Assembly (NCBI GenBank): GCA_964347325.1
Contig: CAYFYA010000009.1
Span: forward strand, 4,685 to 68,684
DNA length: 64,000 nucleotides
Origin: an uncultured Methanomassiliicoccales archaeon
GTDB lineage: Archaea > Thermoplasmatota > Thermoplasmata > RBG-16-68-12 > JAJISG01
Reading direction: 5' to 3'
Shown here in pieces: positions 42-55,205 of the stretch. The translations under genes and the position numbers were made by a program. A model generated the notes under the pieces. The model saw only the letters and a list, made by a program, of their open reading frames with translations, was not told the origin of the DNA and did no database searches. Positions within the stretch are counted from its first letter, which is position 1, and each line of letters starts with the position of its first letter.

Positions 42-608
42 GTGTTCCGTGCCCGCGGCAAGAGCCATGCGAAGTTGAAGATCTGCGCCGTAGGAGAGGA
101 GGCGGTCGGAAAGACGAGTTTGATCCGCCGCTTCGTGGCCGACAAGTTCAGCGAGGAGTACATCAAGACCGTCGGTACCCACTTGAGCAAGAAGACTGTG
201 AGGCTAGAAGACCTTGACGGCGGCCCTATCAAGGTGGACGCCATCATCTGGGACATCATGGGCCAGCGGAGCTTCTCAGACCTTATCCAGGATGCCCATT
301 TTCAGGGGGCAAAGGGCGTCTTTGCGGTGTGTGATATCACCCGTACAGACACCCTTGGGAAGCTTAACGGATGGCTGGTGAAGCTCTTCAGCACGGTCGG
401 ACTCGTCCCGGTGGTTATCATGGCGAACAAGTGGGACCTCAAGACGGCTCGCCAAGTCCGGAAGGAGGACATGATGAGAATGTCGGAGACCTACGGCAGT
501 CCCTACTTCCTGACGAGTGCAAAGACGGGGCAGAACGTTCCTCAAGCCTTCGAGGACCTGATAAGGAGAATTCTCGAGAGGCGGGAGACCAAAACGATCA
601 CTGGTTGA
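42..608 (+). CDS. Ras/Rab-like small GTPase (paralog 1 of 3)
   Basis: G1 P-loop GEEAVGKTS; switch I YIKTVGT; G3 WDIMGQ (non-canonical DxxGQ); G4 NKWD; G5 TSAKTG. GTG start at 42, immediately after the ATG at 40. Confidence 0.85.
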   Translation: MFRARGKSHAKLKICAVGEEAVGKTSLIRRFVADKFSEEYIKTVGTHLSKKTVRLEDLDGGPIKVDAIIWDIMGQRSFSDLIQDAHFQGAKGVFAVCDITRTDTLGKLNGWLVKLFSTVGLVPVVIMANKWDLKTARQVRKEDMMRMSETYGSPYFLTSAKTGQNVPQAFEDLIRRILERRETKTITG

Positions 609-11619: not shown

Positions 11620-12195
11620 ATGGTCTCCGAGTATCAGATGAAGAGCAAGGTGTGCCTCGTCGGCGAGGCCGCCGTCGGGAAGACCAGCCTGATTAGCCGC
11701 TTTGTGAAGGACGAATTCGACGATCGCTACGTGACCACCTTGGGCGCAAAGGTCTCAAAGAAGGAGATTCAGGTGGAGGTACCCGAGAATGACCTTATCA
11801 TCCAGATGGACATGGTGATCTGGGACATCATGGGGGAGAAGGGCATCAGGGATCTACTCAAAGAGGCCTTCTTCCACGGGGCTCAGGGTATCCTCGCGGT
11901 CTGCGACCTCACCCGCTACTCGACTCTGAGGGAGCTGGACGATTGGGTGCAGTCGGTCTACAACGTGGTGGGAAACATCTCCGTCGTCTACGCCATCAAC
12001 AAGGTTGACCTGAAGGACGAGGTGATGGTCCTCTTTGACGAGAGGGAGGTTGCCATGGCGACGCAGGCCTTCGACGCCCCCCACTTCTACACCAGCGCGA
12101 AGACGGGGGCCAACGTACAGATAGCATTCCAGAGCCTGGCGGACGATATCGTCAGGAGGAACCTGGCCACGGACATCATCCAGCTGGGGCCCTAG
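11620..12195 (+). CDS. Ras/Rab-like small GTPase (paralog 2 of 3)
   Basis: GEAAVGKTS, YVTTLGAK switch I, WDIMGEK, NKVDL, TSAKTG. Located between pyrF and the ATP synthase operon. Confidence 0.85.
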   Translation: MVSEYQMKSKVCLVGEAAVGKTSLISRFVKDEFDDRYVTTLGAKVSKKEIQVEVPENDLIIQMDMVIWDIMGEKGIRDLLKEAFFHGAQGILAVCDLTRYSTLRELDDWVQSVYNVVGNISVVYAINKVDLKDEVMVLFDEREVAMATQAFDAPHFYTSAKTGANVQIAFQSLADDIVRRNLATDIIQLGP

Positions 12196-46614: not shown

Positions 46615-48165
46615 GTGGCCTTCCCCGATTGGTTCGTCCTGCTACCGGTCATCGTCCTGACGGTCTTCGGGTTCCTCCTCATAGGCCTCACGTTCGTAGT
46701 CAAGCGGAAGGAGAGGCTGGCGGATGTCGCTCTCGTTGGGCTAGTAATCGCCTTCCTTCTGACCATCGACATGGCGGGAGCTGACTTCCTGAGGAGGCTG
46801 GGCCTGGACCTATGGACCGTCCCCGTTGAGGTCAGGCTGCCGGACCTTATGCTGGAGGTCAACGCCTTCGTCCTGTTCTTCTTCCTGGCCATGACCCTCA
46901 CGGGTATCCTGGTGGTCCTGGCTTCCAGGGCGTTCCTGAGGAGGGATGACAGGAATCAGGGAGAGTACTACGGGCTCCTCCTCATCGCCATCGTCGGGAT
47001 GATGCTGGTCTCGGCCTCCACGGACATCTTCGTGCTCTACCTCTCCTTCGAGTTGGCGAGTATTGCCACCTTCGCGCTGGCGGCCTTCAGGAAGAGGGAC
47101 AAGGGGTCTTCCGAGGCGGCCATGAAGTTCTTCATCATAGGCGTCGTCAGCTCCGCTCTCATCCTCTTCGGCATCTCCCTTCTGTACGGTGTAAGCGGTC
47201 ACGTGGGGACCGGTCAAGGCATGTCTGGTCCCTTCACCGACTTGGGCGTCCTTCGGACCACCATCGCCGGCGGCCTCCTTGTCTTCGAGCCAGTCATAGT
47301 GCTGGCGCTCGTCCTCGTTATCGCGGGGTTCGGGTTCAAGGTGGCAACGGTGCCCTTCCACATGTGGGTGCCGGACGTCTACGAAGGCGCGCCGACGACA
47401 ATCACCACCCTCCTGAGTACGGCCTCGAAGATCATGGGCTTCGCAGCCCTCTTCAGGGTCTTCCTCATAGCCCTCGTAGGGGCAGCAGCCCACTGGACCC
47501 TCGCCCTGGGAATCCTCGCCATCGCCACCATGACCTTAGGGAACGTTGCCGCCCTTCCGCAGAAGAGCATCAAGAGGATGCTGGCCTACTCCAGCATCGC
47601 CCACGCCGGCTATGTCCTCATCGCGGTCATCGTGGGCAGCCATCCCGATGGCAGCGTCGCCACCTCCGCCATGACGGGAGGCCTCTACCACCTCCTCGTC
47701 TACGTCTTCATGAAGGGAGGCGCCTTCATCATCGTCGCTATCACCGGGACGCTCCTAATCGGGGAGAGGCTCGACGACTACAGCGGCCTGGCGAAGAGGA
47801 TGCCCCTCATAGCCTTCGGGATGATGATCCTGCTACTCTCTTTGGCGGGTGTCCCACCTCTAGGCGGCTTTGTCAGCAAGTTCGTGCTCTTCCTGTCGAC
47901 GATTCAAGCTTCGACGGTCCCAGGCACCGAGTGGATGGTCGCCCTGGGTATCGCAGGCGTTCTGAACAGCGCCCTTTCCCTGTACTACTACGCCCGAGTA
48001 ATCAAGCACATGTACTTCCTCGAGGGGCCTGGCGGGGTCGTCACAGCTCCGGCGCCCTACAGCTTCGCCATAATGATCGCTACAATCGGGACCGTCGCCA
48101 CTGGAGTTCTTGCCCTGCCCTTCATGGAGTTTGTCAGCCAGGCGGCGTCCTCTCTTTTCGCGTAA
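46615..48165 (+). CDS. nuoN: NADH-quinone oxidoreductase subunit N
   Basis: VPFHMWVPDVYEGAPTTITTLLSTASK NuoN signature. Confidence 0.9.
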   Translation: MAFPDWFVLLPVIVLTVFGFLLIGLTFVVKRKERLADVALVGLVIAFLLTIDMAGADFLRRLGLDLWTVPVEVRLPDLMLEVNAFVLFFFLAMTLTGILVVLASRAFLRRDDRNQGEYYGLLLIAIVGMMLVSASTDIFVLYLSFELASIATFALAAFRKRDKGSSEAAMKFFIIGVVSSALILFGISLLYGVSGHVGTGQGMSGPFTDLGVLRTTIAGGLLVFEPVIVLALVLVIAGFGFKVATVPFHMWVPDVYEGAPTTITTLLSTASKIMGFAALFRVFLIALVGAAAHWTLALGILAIATMTLGNVAALPQKSIKRMLAYSSIAHAGYVLIAVIVGSHPDGSVATSAMTGGLYHLLVYVFMKGGAFIIVAITGTLLIGERLDDYSGLAKRMPLIAFGMMILLLSLAGVPPLGGFVSKFVLFLSTIQASTVPGTEWMVALGIAGVLNSALSLYYYARVIKHMYFLEGPGGVVTAPAPYSFAIMIATIGTVATGVLALPFMEFVSQAASSLFA

Positions 48166-48217
48166 CCCGCCGGTCCTCCTCCAAACCTTGATAAGAGCCC
48201 CGCTTGGTAGTTCGGGT

Positions 48218-49966
48218 ATGGGGACGCACACCGACATTCGCTGGCTTCCCTGGGGCAAGGAGGCCTTCGAGGAGGCGCGGAGGGATAAGAAGCCAATTCT
48301 CCTCGACCTCTCGGCGGTTTGGTGTCACTGGTGCCACGTGATGGATGAGACCAGCTACTCCGATGACGAGGTCATCGGGCTCATCAACGACAACTTCGTC
48401 GCCATCCGCGTGGACATCGACAAGCGCCCCGACATCAGGGAGCGCTACAACTTCGGCGGGTATCCGACCACCGCCTTTCTCGATGCCGACGGCCAGGTGA
48501 TTGCTGGTGGGACCTACATTCCACCCGACCAGCTCAAGCGTACCCTCATGCAGGTGAAGAGCTACTATGATTCCTCTGGCGGCAAGACCCGGGAGACCAA
48601 GGTTATTCCTGAAACCGTGATACGGCCTTCCGAAGTTGGTCTCAGCCACGACATTATGGAGGAGGTCCTGGGATACCTGCTGGAGCAGTACGACGAGCTT
48701 TACGGTGGGTTTGGAAGCGCACCGAAGTTTCCTCAGCCAGAGGCCCTGGATCTCGCTCTCTATAAGTACAAGATTTCGGGCAACAGCTACTTCCTGAAGG
48801 TGATCGAGAAGAGCCTGAGAGCCATGGCAGACGGCGGAATGTACGACCCCGCGGAAGGAGGCTTCTTCCGGTACTCCGTTACGAAGGATTGGTCGGAACC
48901 CCACTATGAGAAGATGCTCGATGTCAACGTGGGTCTCCTTCGGAACTACCTGAACGCCTATTCGCTCCTGGATGACGCGAAGTACAGAGAGGTCGCGAAG
49001 GACATCCTGAGATACATGGAGACCGTACTTCGGGACCCTGCCGGAGGCTTCTACGGCAGCCAGGATGCCGACGAGGAGTACTACAAGAAGTCCTTGGAGG
49101 AGAGGGGCAAGGTTGATCCGCCCTACACAGACGAGACCCTCTATGCCGACCTCAATGGCCAGGCAGTCTCCACGTACCTACGGGCCTCGGCCGTCCTGGA
49201 TGAGCCGAAGTACCAGGAGGCAGCCCTGTCCACGCTTGGCGTCCTTGAGCAGAGAATCTTGACGGGAGACGGCCGCCTCATCCACTACTGGGACGGAGAG
49301 CCAGGGATCGACGCGTTGCTTTCGGATCACGTTCATGTGGCAAAGGCCTACTTGGATGCCTTTGAACACGTCGGGGAGAGTAGGTACCTAGACAGGGCAG
49401 TCGCCATCGCCCAGGAAATGCTGAAGACCTTTCGGGATGACGATGGTCTCTTGAAAGATCGGCAGGCCGAGGATGGCGACATAGGCCTGCTGCGGGTTCC
49501 TCAGAAGCCGCTGGTCGACAATTCTCACGCAGCTATACTTCTGCTCAAGCTCCATGAGATCACACACGATGAGCGGCTACGGGAGGCTGCCAAAGTCATC
49601 CTCGAGGGGTTCACGGGCCAGTACCCACGCTACTCCCTCTTCGCATCCACGTACGCGATGGCCGTCACGACGTTCCTGAAGGGGCCTCTCAGAGTGGTAT
49701 TGGTGGGGGATGATGGCGAGGCGACAGGGACGCTGCAGAGGGAGATTCTCGCTGCCTACCAACCACGGCGTGTGCTGCATCTCATGCATCCCGGGACGAA
49801 GGACTTGATAGAGGCCGGCTTTCCTGAAGATCCCCTCCCTGCTATCTACGCCTGTGTGGGGACTCAGTGCTCGAATCCTCTTACTGGCGCAGACGCCTTC
49901 AAGGAGGCCGAGGCGTTTCTAGTAAGCGTCGACGCTCAGGATGACACAATGAAAACCGGTTCATGA
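48218..49966 (+). CDS. thioredoxin-domain protein of the YyaL/DUF255 family (thioredoxin-like N-domain plus six-hairpin glycosidase-like domain)
   Basis: N-terminal WCHWCH thioredoxin-like motif followed by an alpha/alpha toroid-like domain. Start taken at MGTHTDIRWLPWGKE. Confidence 0.8.
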   Translation: MGTHTDIRWLPWGKEAFEEARRDKKPILLDLSAVWCHWCHVMDETSYSDDEVIGLINDNFVAIRVDIDKRPDIRERYNFGGYPTTAFLDADGQVIAGGTYIPPDQLKRTLMQVKSYYDSSGGKTRETKVIPETVIRPSEVGLSHDIMEEVLGYLLEQYDELYGGFGSAPKFPQPEALDLALYKYKISGNSYFLKVIEKSLRAMADGGMYDPAEGGFFRYSVTKDWSEPHYEKMLDVNVGLLRNYLNAYSLLDDAKYREVAKDILRYMETVLRDPAGGFYGSQDADEEYYKKSLEERGKVDPPYTDETLYADLNGQAVSTYLRASAVLDEPKYQEAALSTLGVLEQRILTGDGRLIHYWDGEPGIDALLSDHVHVAKAYLDAFEHVGESRYLDRAVAIAQEMLKTFRDDDGLLKDRQAEDGDIGLLRVPQKPLVDNSHAAILLLKLHEITHDERLREAAKVILEGFTGQYPRYSLFASTYAMAVTTFLKGPLRVVLVGDDGEATGTLQREILAAYQPRRVLHLMHPGTKDLIEAGFPEDPLPAIYACVGTQCSNPLTGADAFKEAEAFLVSVDAQDDTMKTGS

Positions 49967-49978
49967 CACTTCGGGGCC

Positions 49979-52690
49979 TTAGTCCCAACCGCCGTCGACG
50001 CTCGTCTCGATCTCGCCATCGTCGATTGCTGGAGCGCCTCGCAGCCTGTCAAGGACTTTGAGTACCGCGTTGCGGAAGCGTTCCCAAGCCGCACGGATGC
50101 TCCCCTTCATTGTGTCCGACTCCCTCGCGAGCGGTTGATCATCGGGACCGTCAGAACCCAAGCCCCAAAGTGTTGGGAGCAGGTCCCGGACTCCTCGAAC
50201 TTCATCCATGTCCCCTGACCAGACCTCCAACACCTGACCAAACTCATCATCTATGCGCCTAGACAGCCTCGAGAGCCGAGCTGACAGGGTCCCGTCGTCT
50301 TCACCTCGATACACGAGGGCCACGTGATGGTTCATACCCCGCTCGATCAGGACTTTAGAGTCTCCGAATGTGAGACTCCTGACCGGTGTGTCCTCCCGAC
50401 TCGAGAAGGCTTCGCGAATGAAGTCTTGAACGGCCTTAAACATCGCCACTAGTATGTCCCGGTCCTTATCGGGTGTCAAGGTCTTCGACCGGTGTGCCAG
50501 GAGAATACCGTCGCTGTGAATGACGAAGACCTCTTCGATACTGAATCTCTTTGCACGCATCCACCTCCACGCCACGAAGAGGCCGCCGGCGAGCAGCAGG
50601 GGCGCGATGAGTGCCCACACCACCAGGTCCAATGTGCTTGGACCAACCGGAATCGGTTCGATGAACACCGTGTTGCTGCTGACAGTTTCGGGTTGGCTAC
50701 CCTTTCCATCGGAGTAGACCAGTTTGACCTGGATAGAGGTCGGGCCTACATCCGCCAGAAGCCGCAAGCGGATCCCAAGATCGACACCACTCTCAGGGCC
50801 GAGACTCGTGACCCTCCAGGATATAAGATCGTCGTGGACCGTCGCTGCATACAGGGAGTTGTCTGTGCCCAGGTACTCGAAGCCTGACGGCATTGTTAGG
50901 TTGAGCCAACCCGTCGCCGCGGCTTTTCCCACGTTGCTAAGGGTGACGTTTAGGACGAGGATCCTCCCAACCTCCAACTTTGTGGCTGAGGTCTCAATCT
51001 CTAGGACAGGGTTTGGGGCGTCCAGTGTGACCGGAGCCTGTAGGATTACAGTGGGCTGGGCGTTGCCGTTGCCGTCCGTTGCCTCCCAAGTGACCAGGAT
51101 CCCCATGTCCTGTCCATCCGACATCCCCCCAAGGGTCTGTAACCTCACCGCGAGAAAATGGGGGCCGACGCCGACGTCTGCGAGCATCACGTCGATCCCG
51201 TCCGATGACTGAGTGTAGGGTAGGCTAGGTGTGAGCTCAAGGACCTCGTAGTTTCCTCCCAGGCTCCAGTTCATCCAAGCTTCAGGCGCTGGGACGGATC
51301 CGGTGTTGTTGTAGTACACGGTCGCCACTACCTCGTCTCCCCGTTCGACGGTGTCAACATCGGCTTGCAGGAAGGGCGCAAAGGAAGGGGCCACTACTGT
51401 CGACTCGGCTGAAGTTTGCACTGGTGGGAAGTCGGTTCCCGATGAGTCCGTGTATGATGCTTGGACATCACATGCCACCACTGTCCCATCTGGCGCGTCC
51501 TTATCGACCTCGAGCATCCAACTGATGGTGGTCGAGGAGGCAGGACCTATTGTCGGGAACGACCAGGTGAGAGTGTGGGCGATGTCATCGTATGAGCCTG
51601 TCGGTGTTGAAGATAGATACGAGACATCGGAGTCCAGCTGGGCGTTAACAAGCACTCCTAATGCACTACCGTTGCCGAGGTTTTCGATGGTTAGATCCAT
51701 CTGTATGATGTCCCCGGGATCGGGCAGGAGGGTACTGGGGGAGAGGGTGGCATCGAGATACCCGCTGAAGATGGTAAGGGAGACCTGCTCACTCTGAGTC
51801 GGCGGCCGATAGTCGACGTGGTCCACGGATTCAAAGGAGAAGTTTACGACCGCCAGCGTCCCGTCGGGAACCCCGCCCTTCACTTCGAAGGTAAGGTTGA
51901 AGGAATAGAGCCCCGGAGTCACGTTGGTGAACTCGTAATTCTGGCAACAGCTTCTCACGCCGCCGATGCTGCCTGCGTCATCGCCGACATAGGTAAGCTC
52001 ATCAGGAAGGGTTACGTTGACCCACAGGTAATCGGCATCACCAGGCCCTGAGTTGTTGAACTCTATTCGGAGCTCTTCGACGTCACCCGGCTCCAGAGCT
52101 GAAACCGACGGGACGACGTCATAGCTCATGTTTGGTCGGTAGAAGCCGTACACCTGGAATGTGTAGTCCTTGTCCCTAGGAAACCACGTCGAACCATCCG
52201 AAGAATTCACGCCCGTCCCGTTGGGATACGCTGAGTCTCCGGGCGAGTGGTACCAATCATAGCCCTGTTGGGTGTTGCTTCTTGCTACCACCCAGTAAGT
52301 GGTGTTGTCCCTTAGGTCCACCCAGTCATCGAAGGAAACGTTTACCCAACTCTGCGAAGAGAGGCCGTCCCCAATACCGGAGGTTATGTCAATGGGCGTG
52401 GGAGATGGCGTGGGAGATGCCGGATCATCGTCCCGGAGAGACGCTATCACCCGGGAGGCTCCACTGTTGGCCTCCGCGAGGATGGCGACGCGAGTTATTG
52501 TGAATGCCTCCTCGGCGACGAAGGATTGAGCTATCCAGCTCTTGTCACTCAACTCGTCAGTACCCCCATTGTCGTCTGCGTTCTCGATTTGCATGTGGTA
52601 GGGATCAGCCGCCGCACGAGGGATGAGACCCGGAGCTGCCAGCATAATCACTAGGCACAGGCCGATGGCTATCAGAGGTCCACCGCGCAC
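49979..52690 (-). CDS. single-pass surface receptor: signal peptide, ~640-aa glycosylated ectodomain of CARDB/DUF11-like repeats, TM helix, and cytoplasmic Roadblock/LC7 (MglB-like) domain
   Basis: Signal peptide MRGGPLIAIGLCLVIMLAAPGLIPRAAA. At least 13 NxS/T sequons. Repeats such as PGDVEELRIEFNNSGPGDADYLWVNVTLPDELTYV. TM helix LDLVVWALIAPLLLAGGLFVAWRW. Cytoplasmic tail VFVIHSDGILLAHRSKT...DILVAMFKAVQDFIREAFS...RSLTFGDSKVLIERGMNHHVALVYRGEDDG aligns block-for-block with Roadblock/MglB (strand - helix - strand - strand). Confidence 0.75.
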   Translation of the reverse strand: MRGGPLIAIGLCLVIMLAAPGLIPRAAADPYHMQIENADDNGGTDELSDKSWIAQSFVAEEAFTITRVAILAEANSGASRVIASLRDDDPASPTPSPTPIDITSGIGDGLSSQSWVNVSFDDWVDLRDNTTYWVVARSNTQQGYDWYHSPGDSAYPNGTGVNSSDGSTWFPRDKDYTFQVYGFYRPNMSYDVVPSVSALEPGDVEELRIEFNNSGPGDADYLWVNVTLPDELTYVGDDAGSIGGVRSCCQNYEFTNVTPGLYSFNLTFEVKGGVPDGTLAVVNFSFESVDHVDYRPPTQSEQVSLTIFSGYLDATLSPSTLLPDPGDIIQMDLTIENLGNGSALGVLVNAQLDSDVSYLSSTPTGSYDDIAHTLTWSFPTIGPASSTTISWMLEVDKDAPDGTVVACDVQASYTDSSGTDFPPVQTSAESTVVAPSFAPFLQADVDTVERGDEVVATVYYNNTGSVPAPEAWMNWSLGGNYEVLELTPSLPYTQSSDGIDVMLADVGVGPHFLAVRLQTLGGMSDGQDMGILVTWEATDGNGNAQPTVILQAPVTLDAPNPVLEIETSATKLEVGRILVLNVTLSNVGKAAATGWLNLTMPSGFEYLGTDNSLYAATVHDDLISWRVTSLGPESGVDLGIRLRLLADVGPTSIQVKLVYSDGKGSQPETVSSNTVFIEPIPVGPSTLDLVVWALIAPLLLAGGLFVAWRWMRAKRFSIEEVFVIHSDGILLAHRSKTLTPDKDRDILVAMFKAVQDFIREAFSSREDTPVRSLTFGDSKVLIERGMNHHVALVYRGEDDGTLSARLSRLSRRIDDEFGQVLEVWSGDMDEVRGVRDLLPTLWGLGSDGPDDQPLARESDTMKGSIRAAWERFRNAVLKVLDRLRGAPAIDDGEIETSVDGGWD

Positions 52691-52848
52691 AATCCTATTC
52701 CCGGGACTGTTGCCAAATACCTTTCTTCATCGTTATCATGAAGGGGGGAGGTGTAGAGTGTGGCTCACCCCCCCCGGAGCCGTTGAACGCGCCCTCGATA
52801 ACCATCTCGTTAGGTTTATAGTGAGGTATTCGGACGTCCAGACGTCCC

Positions 52849-53085
52849 ATGGGACCTTCATCGAGCCTGTTTGACCTCCAGATCCACTCTGCAGAGGAAG
52901 CCGAACGATGGATTCTCGTCCTAGTCCAGGCCCTGCGACAGAAGCGGAAGGAGTGGAGGCTCACGATCGCGCATCTGAACGGGGAGGTCCTGTGCTTTGA
53001 GTGTGAGCCCGCGCTAACGAACGATGAGGTCTCGGAGGCCCTGCTCACGCGGCTCGTCCCGGAGCAGAAGCCGGAGGTACCCTGA
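52849..53085 (+). CDS. small hypothetical protein (78 aa) between the receptor and GTPase genes
   Basis: ORF in the divergent intergenic region with no recognisable domain. Possibly a co-transcribed partner of the GTPase. Confidence 0.35.
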   Translation: MGPSSSLFDLQIHSAEEAERWILVLVQALRQKRKEWRLTIAHLNGEVLCFECEPALTNDEVSEALLTRLVPEQKPEVP

Positions 53086-53152
53086 GCAATGTCTCCGATT
53101 CGATAATCAACGGGAAAACTACAATAATGGCACCTGGAAACCAGATCTCGGG

Positions 53153-53734
53153 ATGGTGGCGTCGACGCTAGCGACACTGGAAGAGCCTCGAATGAAGCTC
53201 AAGATATGCATGGTTGGCGAGGCCGCCGTTGGAAAGACATCTCTCATCCGTCGCTACGTCCACGATCACTTCAATAGTGACTACGTGGCGACTCTGGGTA
53301 CTAAGGTTACGAAAAGGGAACTCGAGGTTGAGGTTCCCGGAACCGATCGCACAGAACGTGTCGCCTTGATGATCTGGGACATTATGGGCCAGAAGAAGGT
53401 CCTGGATCTGATGCGTGAGGGGTACTTCCACGGTGCGCAGGGGTTGCTGATGGTTAGCGATCTGAATCGTCCGAAGACTCTGGAGGAGCTCGAGGGCTGG
53501 CGCACCATGATGGTAGATACAACGGGTGAGATTCCGTCCTACCTCTTGGCCAACAAGGTGGATCTGGTGGAGAAGGAGCCCACGACGGACGACCTCGACG
53601 CAGCGAAGAAGCGGTGGGGCTGCTCCTACGTGCTGACCAGTGCCAAAACGGGGGAAGGAGTGGAGCAAGCTTTCTATGATCTTGCTGTCTTGATTCTCAG
53701 GAAGCTCCGAGAGCGGAAAGCCAAAAGGGCCTAG
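53153..53734 (+). CDS. Ras/Rab-like small GTPase (paralog 3 of 3)
   Basis: MKLKICMVGEAAVGKTSLIRRYV, YVATLGTKV switch I, WDIMGQK, NKVDL, TSAKTG. Start at ATG 53153 or 53192; the ORF-track extension to 53024 was rejected. Confidence 0.85.
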   Translation: MVASTLATLEEPRMKLKICMVGEAAVGKTSLIRRYVHDHFNSDYVATLGTKVTKRELEVEVPGTDRTERVALMIWDIMGQKKVLDLMREGYFHGAQGLLMVSDLNRPKTLEELEGWRTMMVDTTGEIPSYLLANKVDLVEKEPTTDDLDAAKKRWGCSYVLTSAKTGEGVEQAFYDLAVLILRKLRERKAKRA

Positions 53735-53739
53735 GCTCC

Positions 53740-54468
53740 GTGGAGGCCTGCCCCGCTCGCCTGGAGGCGTTTCCAAAGGTTTATCTTGACACAGGGCCTG
53801 GCACCGCACCGATGCCCAACGGCGACATCCTCTTCCCGGTGATGTTCGCTGGCATGCTGATCGCCGGCACCCTTATCATCCTTCTCTCGCCTCTCATCTT
53901 CAAACTCACCGTAGACATCAAAACCTGGAAGCTCTACGCCCTGATCGCTCTCGTCATAGGGGTGATGGGAGTCTCTCTCTACGTTGTCTTCCTGGCTCTC
54001 TCCAACTTCCTCTACTTCCTGCCCTTTGTGGTGTTAGTATTGGCCCTCAGGGGAGTCGCCCCCACCTTCCTGTATCGAGGCCTAAGAGAACGCTTCGAGT
54101 TGCGCAAGTTCTGGCCCATCATAAAGGTCCTGATGGCCGTAGGCTTCCTCGCCTACGCCGGTTACCTGACCTACACGATCCTTTTGCTGGCCTTCGAGCA
54201 GCTCCTCGGCACCTCCAGCCCGAACGTTGACATCTCGGAACTCCTCATCATGGCCGTGGGGGGTGCCTTCGTTATCATCCGACTCCTGGCGCGTATTCTA
54301 CCTGAGTCCATCAAAGAGAGGCCCACCGTGTGGATCACAGCCATTCTGCTTTCGGTCGCCTTTGCTGTCATCGCACCCTTCGCCTTCCCCGAATACGACC
54401 TGTACTACAGACTGGCTGGTCTCGGCGGCTGGGTCCTTGGATTCGTCGTGATCTGGAGATTCTCCTGA
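53740..54468 (+). CDS. 6-TM membrane protein (paralog A), unknown function
   Basis: Polytopic. C-terminal ...APFAFPEYDLYYRLAGLGGWVLGFVVIWRFS is shared with the next ORF. An internal M at 53812 is a possible start. Confidence 0.6.
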   Translation: MEACPARLEAFPKVYLDTGPGTAPMPNGDILFPVMFAGMLIAGTLIILLSPLIFKLTVDIKTWKLYALIALVIGVMGVSLYVVFLALSNFLYFLPFVVLVLALRGVAPTFLYRGLRERFELRKFWPIIKVLMAVGFLAYAGYLTYTILLLAFEQLLGTSSPNVDISELLIMAVGGAFVIIRLLARILPESIKERPTVWITAILLSVAFAVIAPFAFPEYDLYYRLAGLGGWVLGFVVIWRFS

Positions 54469-54527: not shown

Positions 54528-55205
54528 ATGTCTCCAGCCATCTTCGACCTCGACAGAGGACTGGAGATGGCGGCGGAGAACCTCGTCTCCATATTCGCTA
54601 TACTGCTAGTGCTAGGCTCAGTCCTCTTCCTCTTCGGCCCCTTGTTCTTTCGCCTGCTGAAGCGGGGAATGTGGGCCATGAGTGTCATTGCAGTCATCCC
54701 AGCCTTCGTCGTGGCCTCCATGGGACTCTCCTTCGTGGAGCTCAGCTTCAGTAATCCAGCGATTCTCGCGCCCATAGTGGCCTTCGTATTCGTTGCCAGA
54801 GTCGTTTCTCCCACCCTCGCCCTCCACAACGTGAGAGAGAAGCTGGCATCCAGAGGTCTCTGGGGGAGCACAAGGGCCTTCGCCTTCTTGGGATTCCTGG
54901 GTTTTGGCCTATACGTTGGATACCAGACCTTCGTATCACCGGAGGGGGCGGCCGCCGATCCGGTGCTTGCCACCGAGAGGATTGTGATGGCTGTCGGGAC
55001 CTCGTTCATTTTCCTCAGACTGTACTACAAGGCCATGCCCCGGGAGTCCAGCAGTCTCATGATGGTGTGGCTTGCTGCCATCTTCTTCTCCCTGGCCTTC
55101 TCGGTCGTGGCCCCTTACGCCTTCCCCGACTACCACGTCCTCTACTCCATCTCAGGGGTCATGGGGTGGCTCATAGGTGCGGCGGTGATCGCCAAGTCGC
55201 CCTAG
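54528..55205 (+). CDS. 6-TM membrane protein (paralog B), unknown function
   Basis: Same topology and C-terminal motif (APYAFPDYHVLYSISGVMGWLIGAAVIAKSP) as paralog A. Confidence 0.6.
   Translation: MSPAIFDLDRGLEMAAENLVSIFAILLVLGSVLFLFGPLFFRLLKRGMWAMSVIAVIPAFVVASMGLSFVELSFSNPAILAPIVAFVFVARVVSPTLALHNVREKLASRGLWGSTRAFAFLGFLGFGLYVGYQTFVSPEGAAADPVLATERIVMAVGTSFIFLRLYYKAMPRESSSLMMVWLAAIFFSLAFSVVAPYAFPDYHVLYSISGVMGWLIGAAVIAKSP

Follow-up and report, generated by a model that had tools for sequence, protein, structure and literature searches.

The window, which is the whole 64,000-nucleotide stretch of DNA that was analysed, contains the gene for a predicted surface receptor and, diverging from it, a short operon encoding a small protein (small78) and a Rab-like GTPase (Table 1). 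The receptor reading frame is identical to the gene call made on an independent assembly. Its hydropathy agrees with the original prediction of a 903-aa protein with a signal peptide and one TM helix; the signal peptide was assigned from hydropathy and not by a dedicated signal-peptide predictor. The ectodomain had been described as sequon-rich and CARDB/DUF11-like, which is borne out by three stretches of DUF11 (Pfam E 1.3e-16) and by 15 N-x-S/T sequons, every one of them in the ectodomain, compared to a shuffle expectation of 5.4 +/- 2.1 (2000 shuffles). The N-terminal part also matches a choice-of-anchor R domain (NCBIfam choice_anch_R, 6e-9). A basic segment (RWMRAKR) directly after the TM helix fits the positive-inside rule. 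The cytoplasmic tail is 192 aa, against the ~190 aa expected. An alignment of orthologues places the first strand of the tail domain only ~7 residues after the TM helix, and the C-terminal extension beyond the domain is poorly conserved among the aligned orthologous tails. These sequence features suggest a type-I surface glycoprotein, for which it is proposed that a longin-fold domain is held at the inner face of the membrane.

Table 1. Positions of the receptor gene, its predicted domains and associated genes in the window.
Feature	Position	Strand	Description or basis
Receptor gene	49979..52690	-	903 aa, single-pass: signal peptide, DUF11/CARDB ectodomain, TM helix, longin-fold tail
Signal peptide / N-terminal hydrophobic segment, residues 1-28	52607..52690	-	Hydropathy peak; AAADP-type end
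Ectodomain, residues 29-686, beta-sandwich repeats	50633..52606	-	Pfam, NCBIfam, sequon count
TM helix, ~residues 687-711, sole internal one	50558..50632	-	Hydropathy
Cytoplasmic longin-fold domain, residues 714-843 (130 aa)	50162..50551	-	AF2 model topology, structural matches
C-terminal extension, residues 844-903	49982..50161	-	Acidic, one amphipathic stretch; alignment of orthologous tails
Divergent intergenic region, 158 bp, receptor gene to small78	52691..52848	.	Sequence read directly
small78, 78 aa, first gene of GTPase operon	52849..53085	+	ORF; also called by independent gene caller
Rab/Ras-like small GTPase, 193 aa	53153..53734	+	Pfam Ras 1.4e-31
Multi-pass membrane protein, ~6-7 TM	53740..54468	+	Gene caller start 53812; paralogue of 54528..55205
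Second multi-pass membrane paralogue	54528..55205	+	Paralogue of 53740..54468
GTPase2, paralogous Rab-like GTPase	11620..12195	+	Orthologue comparison
Third Rab-like GTPase paralogue, window edge	42..608	+	Paralogue

The original prediction placed a divergent gap of ~160 bp between the receptor and GTPase genes. The real gap is 462 bp and holds small78; the 158 bp are the distance from the receptor gene to small78. A TTTATA element at 52815-52820, which is 29-34 bp upstream of the small78 ATG, makes this region a candidate promoter. The small78 protein has 25 homologous protein clusters, and all of those with a source name come from Thermoplasmata/Thermoplasmatota. Its predicted fold is beta-alpha-beta-beta-alpha (AF2 pLDDT 79.9). 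The stop codon of small78 overlaps the GTPase start in three related loci (L015, L017, L018). As read from the gene arrangement, small78 is translationally coupled to and co-transcribed with the GTPase in Thermoplasmata.

The GTPase adjacent to small78 is, as judged from sequence, a Rab-like member of the Ras superfamily (the 'Rup' type in PMC4316618) and not MglA-like. All of its motifs are intact, including G1 (GEAAVGKT), G3 (DIMGQ, the Ras-type DxxGQ), G4 (NKVD) and G5 (SAK). A PDB sequence search returned a Thorarchaeota Rab as the best match (2.6e-26), followed by Rab23, Sec4 and Rab8. The cysteine prenylation motif of eukaryotic Rabs was not found in this protein, which has a polybasic end free of Cys (...RKLRERKAKRA). 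The start codon is conserved in the relative L003. Rab-like GTPases were noted in Thermoplasmatales in 2016 (PMC4915359). The count of three GTPases in the window was also correct, the other two being paralogues. An orthologue of GTPase2 lies within the cluster in 8 of the 10 related loci; in the window it is 40 kb off. The two paralogous multi-TM proteins reported downstream of the GTPase are present, and L003 and L005, the nearest relatives, are the only loci in which these genes are conserved in that position. No Pfam or NCBIfam family match was found for the first. A Yip1-like or SCAMP-like identity was rejected since the sole match, SCAMP at E 0.003 in the second paralogue, is below the cutoff. 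An ArvA/ArvB/ArvC identity was likewise rejected. The downstream genes encode multi-TM proteins with no Pfam match, not DUF2073 or DUF2072, and with the ArvB and ArvC partners missing the locus is not an ArvA system.

The first ~90 residues of the tail had been assigned to a Roadblock/LC7 domain. The folded domain is actually 130 aa long (residues ~714-843) and its predicted topology is that of a longin. Roadblock domains have an alpha-beta-beta-alpha-beta-beta-beta topology with an N-terminal helix packed on the sheet. The tail model opens with strand 1 right after the TM helix, closes with two helices and is without the N-terminal Roadblock helix. DSSP assignment of the AF2 model (E4-12, E17-22, H31-48, E57-62, E65-71, E75-82, H88-109, H115-128) gives a five-stranded sheet in the order beta-beta-alpha-beta-beta-beta-alpha-alpha, which is the longin arrangement (PMC10933270). 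The top structural matches are solved longin domains, namely Sec22b, Ykt6, VAMP7 and AP sigma subunits. The model also superposes on solved Roadblock proteins, but with lower scores than on longins and over a shorter alignment (~95 residues, compared to 115-120 for the longins). Foldseek ranks LAMTOR2 first by E-value and Sec22b best by TM-score.

Profile searches with the tail gave weak matches. Robl_LC7 is the only Pfam family touched by the window tail (14.0-15.1 bits, E 0.02-0.04), and the score does not reach the PF03259 gathering score of 23 bits. Weak PF03259 matches occur in 9 of 32 members of the tail family (best E 0.0014), and among the curated longin families Fuz_longin_1 and Intu_longin_1 are each matched weakly in two of the 32 (E 0.023 and E 0.074, respectively). 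In a profile search the tail matched CvnB5, which is a Roadblock protein (E 0.09), and in a PDB profile search it matched BET5 (E 0.78); a direct sequence search against the PDB returned noise only. Going by the predicted model, the tail domain is a longin-fold domain and not a classical Roadblock domain. This label applies at the level of the fold. Since the matches to curated longin profiles are weak, common descent with longins is not claimed.

The tail domain is one member of a large archaeal family, which comprises thousands of clusters and has no Pfam or NCBIfam entry. The family was gathered by an exhaustive HMMER scan, and related loci were gathered with narrower tail alignments; a word-indexed search gave one match with the tail and three with the tail alignment. 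Hundreds of different surface proteins end in this domain, a single genome encodes several paralogues, and giant soluble proteins bear two or three copies. The family merits a curated profile even if there is no physical coupling to a GTPase.

The synteny of receptor and GTPase was compared in relatives. A divergent TM-anchored longin protein adjoins the small78-GTPase operon in 10 of the 10 Thermoplasmata loci examined, all of which have this operon, and small78 is the true divergent partner. The ectodomain of these proteins ranges from none (in a 211-aa protein) to >1,100 aa. The flanking genes vary by locus and include DsbH with an FAD oxidase; ERCC4, Nre and DUF6159; and translin with GARS. 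The linkage is conserved, holding up where the flanking genes have been exchanged and where the ectodomain has been lost. A second lineage has two to four TM-longin genes followed 4-41 bp on by a Rab-like GTPase (L076, L099, L101), and further arrangements of the two gene types occur in L071, L075 and L036. The short TM-longin proteins from both lineages form one clade. In 609 kb, 6 of 8 GTPases have a tail-domain ORF no more than 1.5 kb away, a 5-fold enrichment (p ~0.03). With three in 64 kb, this genome is rich in Rab-like GTPases and some chance adjacency is to be expected, and inherited gene order could be the source of part of the Thermoplasmata synteny. Across the wider family, most members lack a neighbouring GTPase. 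None was found at the 14 metagenome loci with 2 kb or more on each side of the tail-domain gene, within 7-10 kb of the tail-domain paralogues in L010 and L013, or next to the giant soluble proteins.

The gene neighbourhood suggests that the tethered longin domain may serve the Rab-like GTPase as a platform for membrane docking and regulation, an interpretation to which we give an even chance. The receptor and the short 'TM + longin' clade belong to a subset of the family whose genes are found in conserved clusters together with either one or two Rab-like GTPases. By analogy with eukaryotic longin and Roadblock platforms, the tethered domain is probably a homodimer or a heterodimer with another TM-longin protein. 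It may act on the GTPase as a recruiter, GEF or GAP, with small78 as a possible cofactor, and the variable ectodomain may provide an extracellular input or spatial cue. Such a role would have counterparts in Mon1-Ccz1/Rab7, TRAPP/Rab1, SRX/SR-beta, Ragulator/Rag and MglB/MglA. The analysis shows the protein architecture, the predicted fold, intact motifs in the GTPase and a conserved linkage of the genes; physical binding between longin and GTPase, the way in which regulation runs and its downstream effect are inferred. Longin domains also occur in SNAREs and in the sigma subunits of adaptors, where their roles do not involve a GTPase.

The longin tail could instead be a general cytoplasmic module that oligomerises or anchors archaeal surface proteins and is functionally unconnected to the GTPase, with the neighbourhood being the inherited order of one lineage. 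The tail might then cluster adhesins or S-layer-like glycoproteins, or bind them to a cytoplasmic scaffold. The occurrence of the domain at the end of hundreds of surface proteins, several of them paralogues in the same genome, its duplication or triplication in soluble giant proteins and the distance of most family members from any GTPase are all consistent with this, as is the dimerisation typical of longin and Roadblock domains (PMC10933270). However, the linkage to the small78-GTPase operon outlives the swap of flanking genes and ectodomain loss, it recurs with other gene orders in a second lineage, and GTPases are enriched beside tail-domain ORFs. A general module is considered rather unlikely.

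It is less likely still that the locus encodes a membrane-remodelling or cargo-sorting system and not a signalling receptor. In such a system the longin tail would be a cargo mark or coat nucleator and the GTPase would drive extracellular-vesicle budding or the formation of surface domains. The small GTPase ArvA drives vesicle formation in other Euryarchaeota (PMC10927574), the tail matches Sec22b, Ykt6, VAMP7 and AP sigma subunits best by structure, and multi-pass membrane proteins are encoded downstream of the GTPase. However, there is no SNARE motif past the longin domain, which is C-terminal to the TM helix, the reverse of longin SNAREs. The Arv partners are missing, and the multi-TM genes are kept in the closest relatives only. 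The least probable explanation is a true Roadblock/LC7 (MglB-type) tail that would serve an MglA-like GTPase as its GAP. The Robl_LC7 and CvnB5 matches point in this direction, but the Pfam score is under the gathering cutoff, the model ends in two helices and is without the N-terminal Roadblock one, longins align better and over a greater length, and the neighbouring GTPase has the Ras-type DxxGQ of Rab-like and not MglA-like proteins (PMC4316618).

The docking-platform interpretation may extend beyond this locus. A widespread transmembrane system in Thermoplasmata, and probably in other non-Asgard archaea, may use paired longins (a short TM-longin and a receptor-longin) to dock and switch Rab-like GTPases, with a longin domain close to the membrane in many surface proteins, although this broader proposal is doubtful at present. 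Longin and Roadblock platforms, paired with Rab, Rag or Arf GTPases, have a central role in the membrane identity of eukaryotes and are among the markers of 'eukaryote-like' complexity in Asgard archaea. If the paired-longin proposal is true, the longin-Rab logic of membrane identity, usually counted as an Asgard or eukaryotic signature, would also occur in other Archaea, in the form of a receptor-coupled module. The locus points to a very large archaeal family of longin-fold domains tethered by their own TM helix and often fused to predicted glycosylated ectodomains. In Thermoplasmata, a conserved subset of this family shows genomic coupling to Rab-like GTPases. Should this coupling be physical, the receptor, platform and GTPase would form a simple and experimentally tractable module with the receptor and platform on one polypeptide; longin-GTPase systems would be phylogenetically broader than Asgard archaea; and a function could be assigned to the Rab-like GTPases of Thermoplasmatales (PMC4915359). 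The original claim that this fusion was undescribed in archaea is consistent with the literature searched, which covered open-access papers only.

Longin and Roadblock GTPase platforms include Mon1-Ccz1/Rab7, TRAPP Bet5-Trs23/Rab1, SR-alpha SRX/SR-beta, FLCN-FNIP, NPRL2/3, Ragulator/Rag and MglB/MglA. The eukaryotic and Asgard longin platforms, including a Lokiarchaeota Roadblock-Longin protein (PDB 8yqg), are among the closest known systems. Compared to these, the window domain sits C-terminal to a TM helix and predicted glycosylated ectodomain in a single fusion protein, and no Pfam longin family matches its sequence significantly. The system is in Thermoplasmata, has a lineage-specific 78-aa protein among its partners and is known at the level of genes. 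Like ArvA/ArvB/ArvC of Haloferax (PMC10927574), it pairs a euryarchaeal small GTPase with small, conserved proteins from the same operon and is proposed to act at the membrane; however, the window GTPase is Rab-like by sequence and its partner is a TM-anchored longin protein, without DUF2073 or DUF2072. The MglB/MglA system and the actinobacterial conservons (CvnA-D) couple a Roadblock protein and small GTPase to a membrane sensor. In the window protein, sensor and platform share one polypeptide and the helices are arranged as in longins; the GTPase has the Ras/Rab-type DxxGQ and there is no histidine kinase. As in Ragulator-Rag, a platform superfold is proposed to be held at the membrane for GTPase docking. 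The window topology is longin and its GTPases are without the C-terminal Roadblock domains of Rags. The LAMTOR2/3 Roadblock dimers of Ragulator are tethered to the lysosome by the lipidated adaptor LAMTOR1, whereas the window protein is tethered by its own TM helix.

The receptor has the architecture that the original prediction gave it, as hydropathy, Pfam and NCBIfam domains and sequon counts all agree. It begins with a hydrophobic segment (residues 1-28) and also has an N-terminal choice-of-anchor R domain (NCBIfam), three DUF11 stretches (Pfam, E 1.3e-16) with weak CARDB similarity, and one internal TM helix (~687-711) followed by RWMRAKR. All N-x-S/T sequons (15/15) are located in the ectodomain; shuffles expect 5.4 +/- 2.1. 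The window is archaeal, has a G+C content of ~60% and contains A-type ATPase and Nuo/Fpo-like genes. The gene convergent to the receptor gene, 12 bp away and also its neighbour in the related locus L003, encodes a thioredoxin-like DsbH/DUF255 protein that ends in an epimerase-like alpha/alpha-toroid region. The gene caller picks a later start for this protein (582 aa vs the 618-aa ORF).

Coordinates of the receptor gene, its neighbours and the GTPase paralogues in the window
Feature	Position	Strand	Remarks
Receptor ORF	49979..52690	-	903 aa; identical gene called on an independent public assembly
small78 ORF	52849..53085	+	78 aa; between receptor and GTPase; also called by an independent gene caller
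Ras-family GTPase (GTPase3)	53153..53734	+	Pfam 1.4e-31
Rab-like paralogue GTPase2	11620..12195
Third Rab-like paralogue	42..608
TTTATA hexamer	52815..52820		29-34 bp before the small78 ATG
Multi-pass proteins	53740..54468, 54528..55205		paralogous, ~6-7 TM; directly behind GTPase3
DsbH/DUF255 protein	48110..49966

GTPase3 has intact G1 (GEAAVGKT), G3 (DIMGQ), G4 (NKVD) and G5 (SAK) motifs and is apparently active. Its polybasic C-terminus lacks cysteine. Its closest solved relative is a Thorarchaeota Rab (2.6e-26), followed by Rab23, Sec4 and Rab8, and the two paralogues, 42-46% identical to it, bring the number of Rab-like GTPases to three in 64 kb. A divergent region of ~160 bp was originally placed between receptor and GTPase. 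The gap of 158 bp is real, but it runs from the receptor to small78, a gene that had been overlooked. Homologues of small78 form 25 clusters, and all those with a source name are from Thermoplasmata or Thermoplasmatota. The predicted fold is a confident beta-alpha-beta-beta-alpha (pLDDT 79.9). The stop codon of small78 overlaps the GTPase start in L015, L017 and L018; therefore, the two genes are probably co-translated. The hexamer upstream of small78 would fit an archaeal TATA box and a transcript with a short leader or none. The two multi-pass proteins have no family match, apart from one sub-threshold match to SCAMP (E 0.003), and the pair is kept downstream of the GTPase only in the two closest relatives.

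The isolated tail matches only Robl_LC7 in Pfam, with an E of 0.043 and 14 bits vs a cutoff of 23. A direct sequence search of the PDB returned noise, and a word-indexed protein search found one homologue. When 1.84 billion cluster representatives were scanned exhaustively with HMMER, 3,124 proteins matched the tail domain at E <= 1e-3, 921 of them at E <= 1e-10. The matched region is ~130 residues (714-843) rather than the ~90 first proposed. The receptor domain comes from a large family still outside the curated profile libraries, with no model in Pfam or NCBIfam. An alignment of 32 diverse members has the ordered signature D-x-D, MLTAVQxFVxDSF, FG, G, G, W-x-G-[DN], in which W111 and G113 are invariant. 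These members match Robl_LC7 (9/32), Fuz_longin_1 (2/32) and Intu_longin_1 (2/32) weakly, as the family profile does the Roadblock protein CvnB5 (E 0.09) and TRAPP BET5 (E 0.78).

Architecture was surveyed in the best 151 proteins (150 listed in the HMMER scan and the homologue found earlier). In most cases the domain forms the very C-terminal end of a large DUF11/CARDB/PKD surface protein, right behind a TM helix. Other members are soluble proteins of 1,200-2,400 aa with 2-3 copies ~505 aa apart, or ~570-aa proteins that combine four TM helices with a tandem pair of copies. The soluble type (P0002, P0006, P0013, P0014 and others) lacks a TM helix and has a CARDB-like module before each longin-fold copy. 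Its genomic context is seen in L103:6001-12516, where Alba, ribosomal S15 and tRNA-intron endonuclease nearby indicate an archaeal contig. The four helices of the ~570-aa type (P0025, P0035, P0045, P0051) are N-terminal, and the tandem pair resembles an internal heterodimer in one chain. In the relative P0001 (L001:33-668) the stretch behind the longin domain is unlike that in the window and contains a helix-rich segment, LRAWCLQLGLDDSGSVANLRERLL, which may resemble a SAP-type motif.

AlphaFold2 on the 32-member alignment gave a confident model (pLDDT 87.8, pTM 0.83) with the elements E4-12, E17-22, H31-48, E57-62, E65-71, E75-82, H88-109 and H115-128. Relative to Roadblock, longins are described as missing the N-terminal helix and having an additional C-terminal one (PMC10933270); the model topology, beta-beta-alpha-beta-beta-beta-alpha-alpha, is therefore the longin arrangement. 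Structural matches, with scores, are Sec22b (13.6), Ykt6 (12.4), VAMP7 longin (12.0), AP-3 sigma (11.9), sedlin (11.9), synbindin (11.3), Lokiarchaeota longin 8yqg (11.0), SR-alpha SRX (10.9), Ccz1/Mon1 (10.4), LAMTOR3 (9.8), MglB (9.7) and Asgard Roadblock (9.7). Alignments cover 115-124 residues vs longins and ~95-98 vs Roadblocks. Foldseek intermixed LAMTOR2, sigma-adaptin and MglB, with the best TM-score for Sec22b (0.70). The model thus places the tail in the Roadblock/longin superfold as the longin version; the original assignment to Roadblock/LC7 had the right neighbourhood but the wrong family.

A GTDB genome scan with close tail sequences gave 12 loci. All belong to MAGs of Methanomassiliicoccales or Thermoplasmata, which have several paralogues per genome. 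Loci found through small78 homologues were added, and every locus was searched with HMMs for the tail, GTPases and small78. A tail-domain TM protein is divergently adjacent in 10/10 independent loci carrying small78-GTPase3 (the window, L003, L004, L005, L011, L012, L015/16, L017, L018 and L019/20). The predicted receptor-GTPase pairing is therefore kept in relatives, and the linkage survives rearrangement, as the flanks vary (DsbH-like and FAD-oxidase; ERCC4, Nre and DUF6159; translin and GARS). Ectodomains range from none to >1,100 aa, and in the proteins without one (211-213 aa) a short stub at the N-terminus precedes the single TM helix and the longin domain. A GTPase2 orthologue is inside the cluster in 8/10 loci, either convergently behind GTPase3 or as the next gene downstream of the receptor; in the window it is 40 kb away. 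The tail-domain tree sets the clades of GTPase-adjacent receptors apart from one clade of non-adjacent paralogues and another of short TM-longin proteins.

With more distant members as queries, a metagenome scan gave 80 loci (609 kb in total), of which only 7 contain a Ras-like GTPase. Six of the 8 GTPases lie <=1.5 kb from a tail-domain ORF, a 5-fold higher density (binomial p ~0.03). Tandem TM-longin genes precede a GTPase by 4-41 bp in L076, L099 and L101; other arrangements are divergent (L075), GTPase upstream (L071) and convergent (L036). The short TM-longin proteins encoded here group with the Thermoplasmata short clade. The arrays L076:650-8703, L099:8870-13530 and L101:1-1997 consist of 2-4 consecutive same-strand TM-longin genes with a Rab-like GTPase at the end, and a small78 homologue is absent from them. 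No GTPase is within 2 kb in the 14 metagenome loci having >=2 kb on both sides, and none is near the tail-domain paralogues in L010, L013, L021, L102 and L103. These GTPase-free loci indicate that the domain is general and that only a conserved subset is linked to GTPases in cis. In L021, a PKD/FG-GAP surface protein of 1,568 aa with a longin-fold tail has a canonical Robl_LC7 gene (L021:5935-6393) 1.6 kb upstream and no called GTPase within 8 kb.

The longin domain is ~7 residues from the membrane, and the chances are about even that it is a platform on which the Rab-like GTPase docks and is regulated. The platform would probably be dimeric, possibly a heterodimer of a short form and a receptor form, with small78 as a putative cofactor and the ectodomain supplying input or localisation. 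It is less probable, though still to be taken seriously, that the tail is a general oligomerisation or anchoring module and that the synteny is no more than inherited gene order. A cargo-sorting or vesiculation role for the cluster seems unlikely. The original reading of the tail as an MglB-type Roadblock GAP is disfavoured and is the least probable, since the tail topology, the Pfam score below cutoff and the Ras-type G3 motif of the GTPase all argue against it. The original observation is accordingly confirmed in part, and its interpretation supported in part. With neither the DUF2073 nor the DUF2072 partner present, the locus is not an ArvA system.

Roadblock domains are common in prokaryotes (PMC12962969), and their coupling to GTPases there has long been known (PMC4316618). 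Asgard longin and Roadblock domains are well studied, including GTPase fusions (PMC10933270; bioRxiv 2020.10.19.343400), and Rab-like GTPases of Thermoplasmatales have been noted without partners (PMC4915359). Neither a TM-anchored longin family nor this cluster was found described for archaea outside Asgard in the open-access literature, although such absence is not proof. Next to these systems, the locus is proposed to be a longin-GTPase platform in the form of a single-pass receptor.
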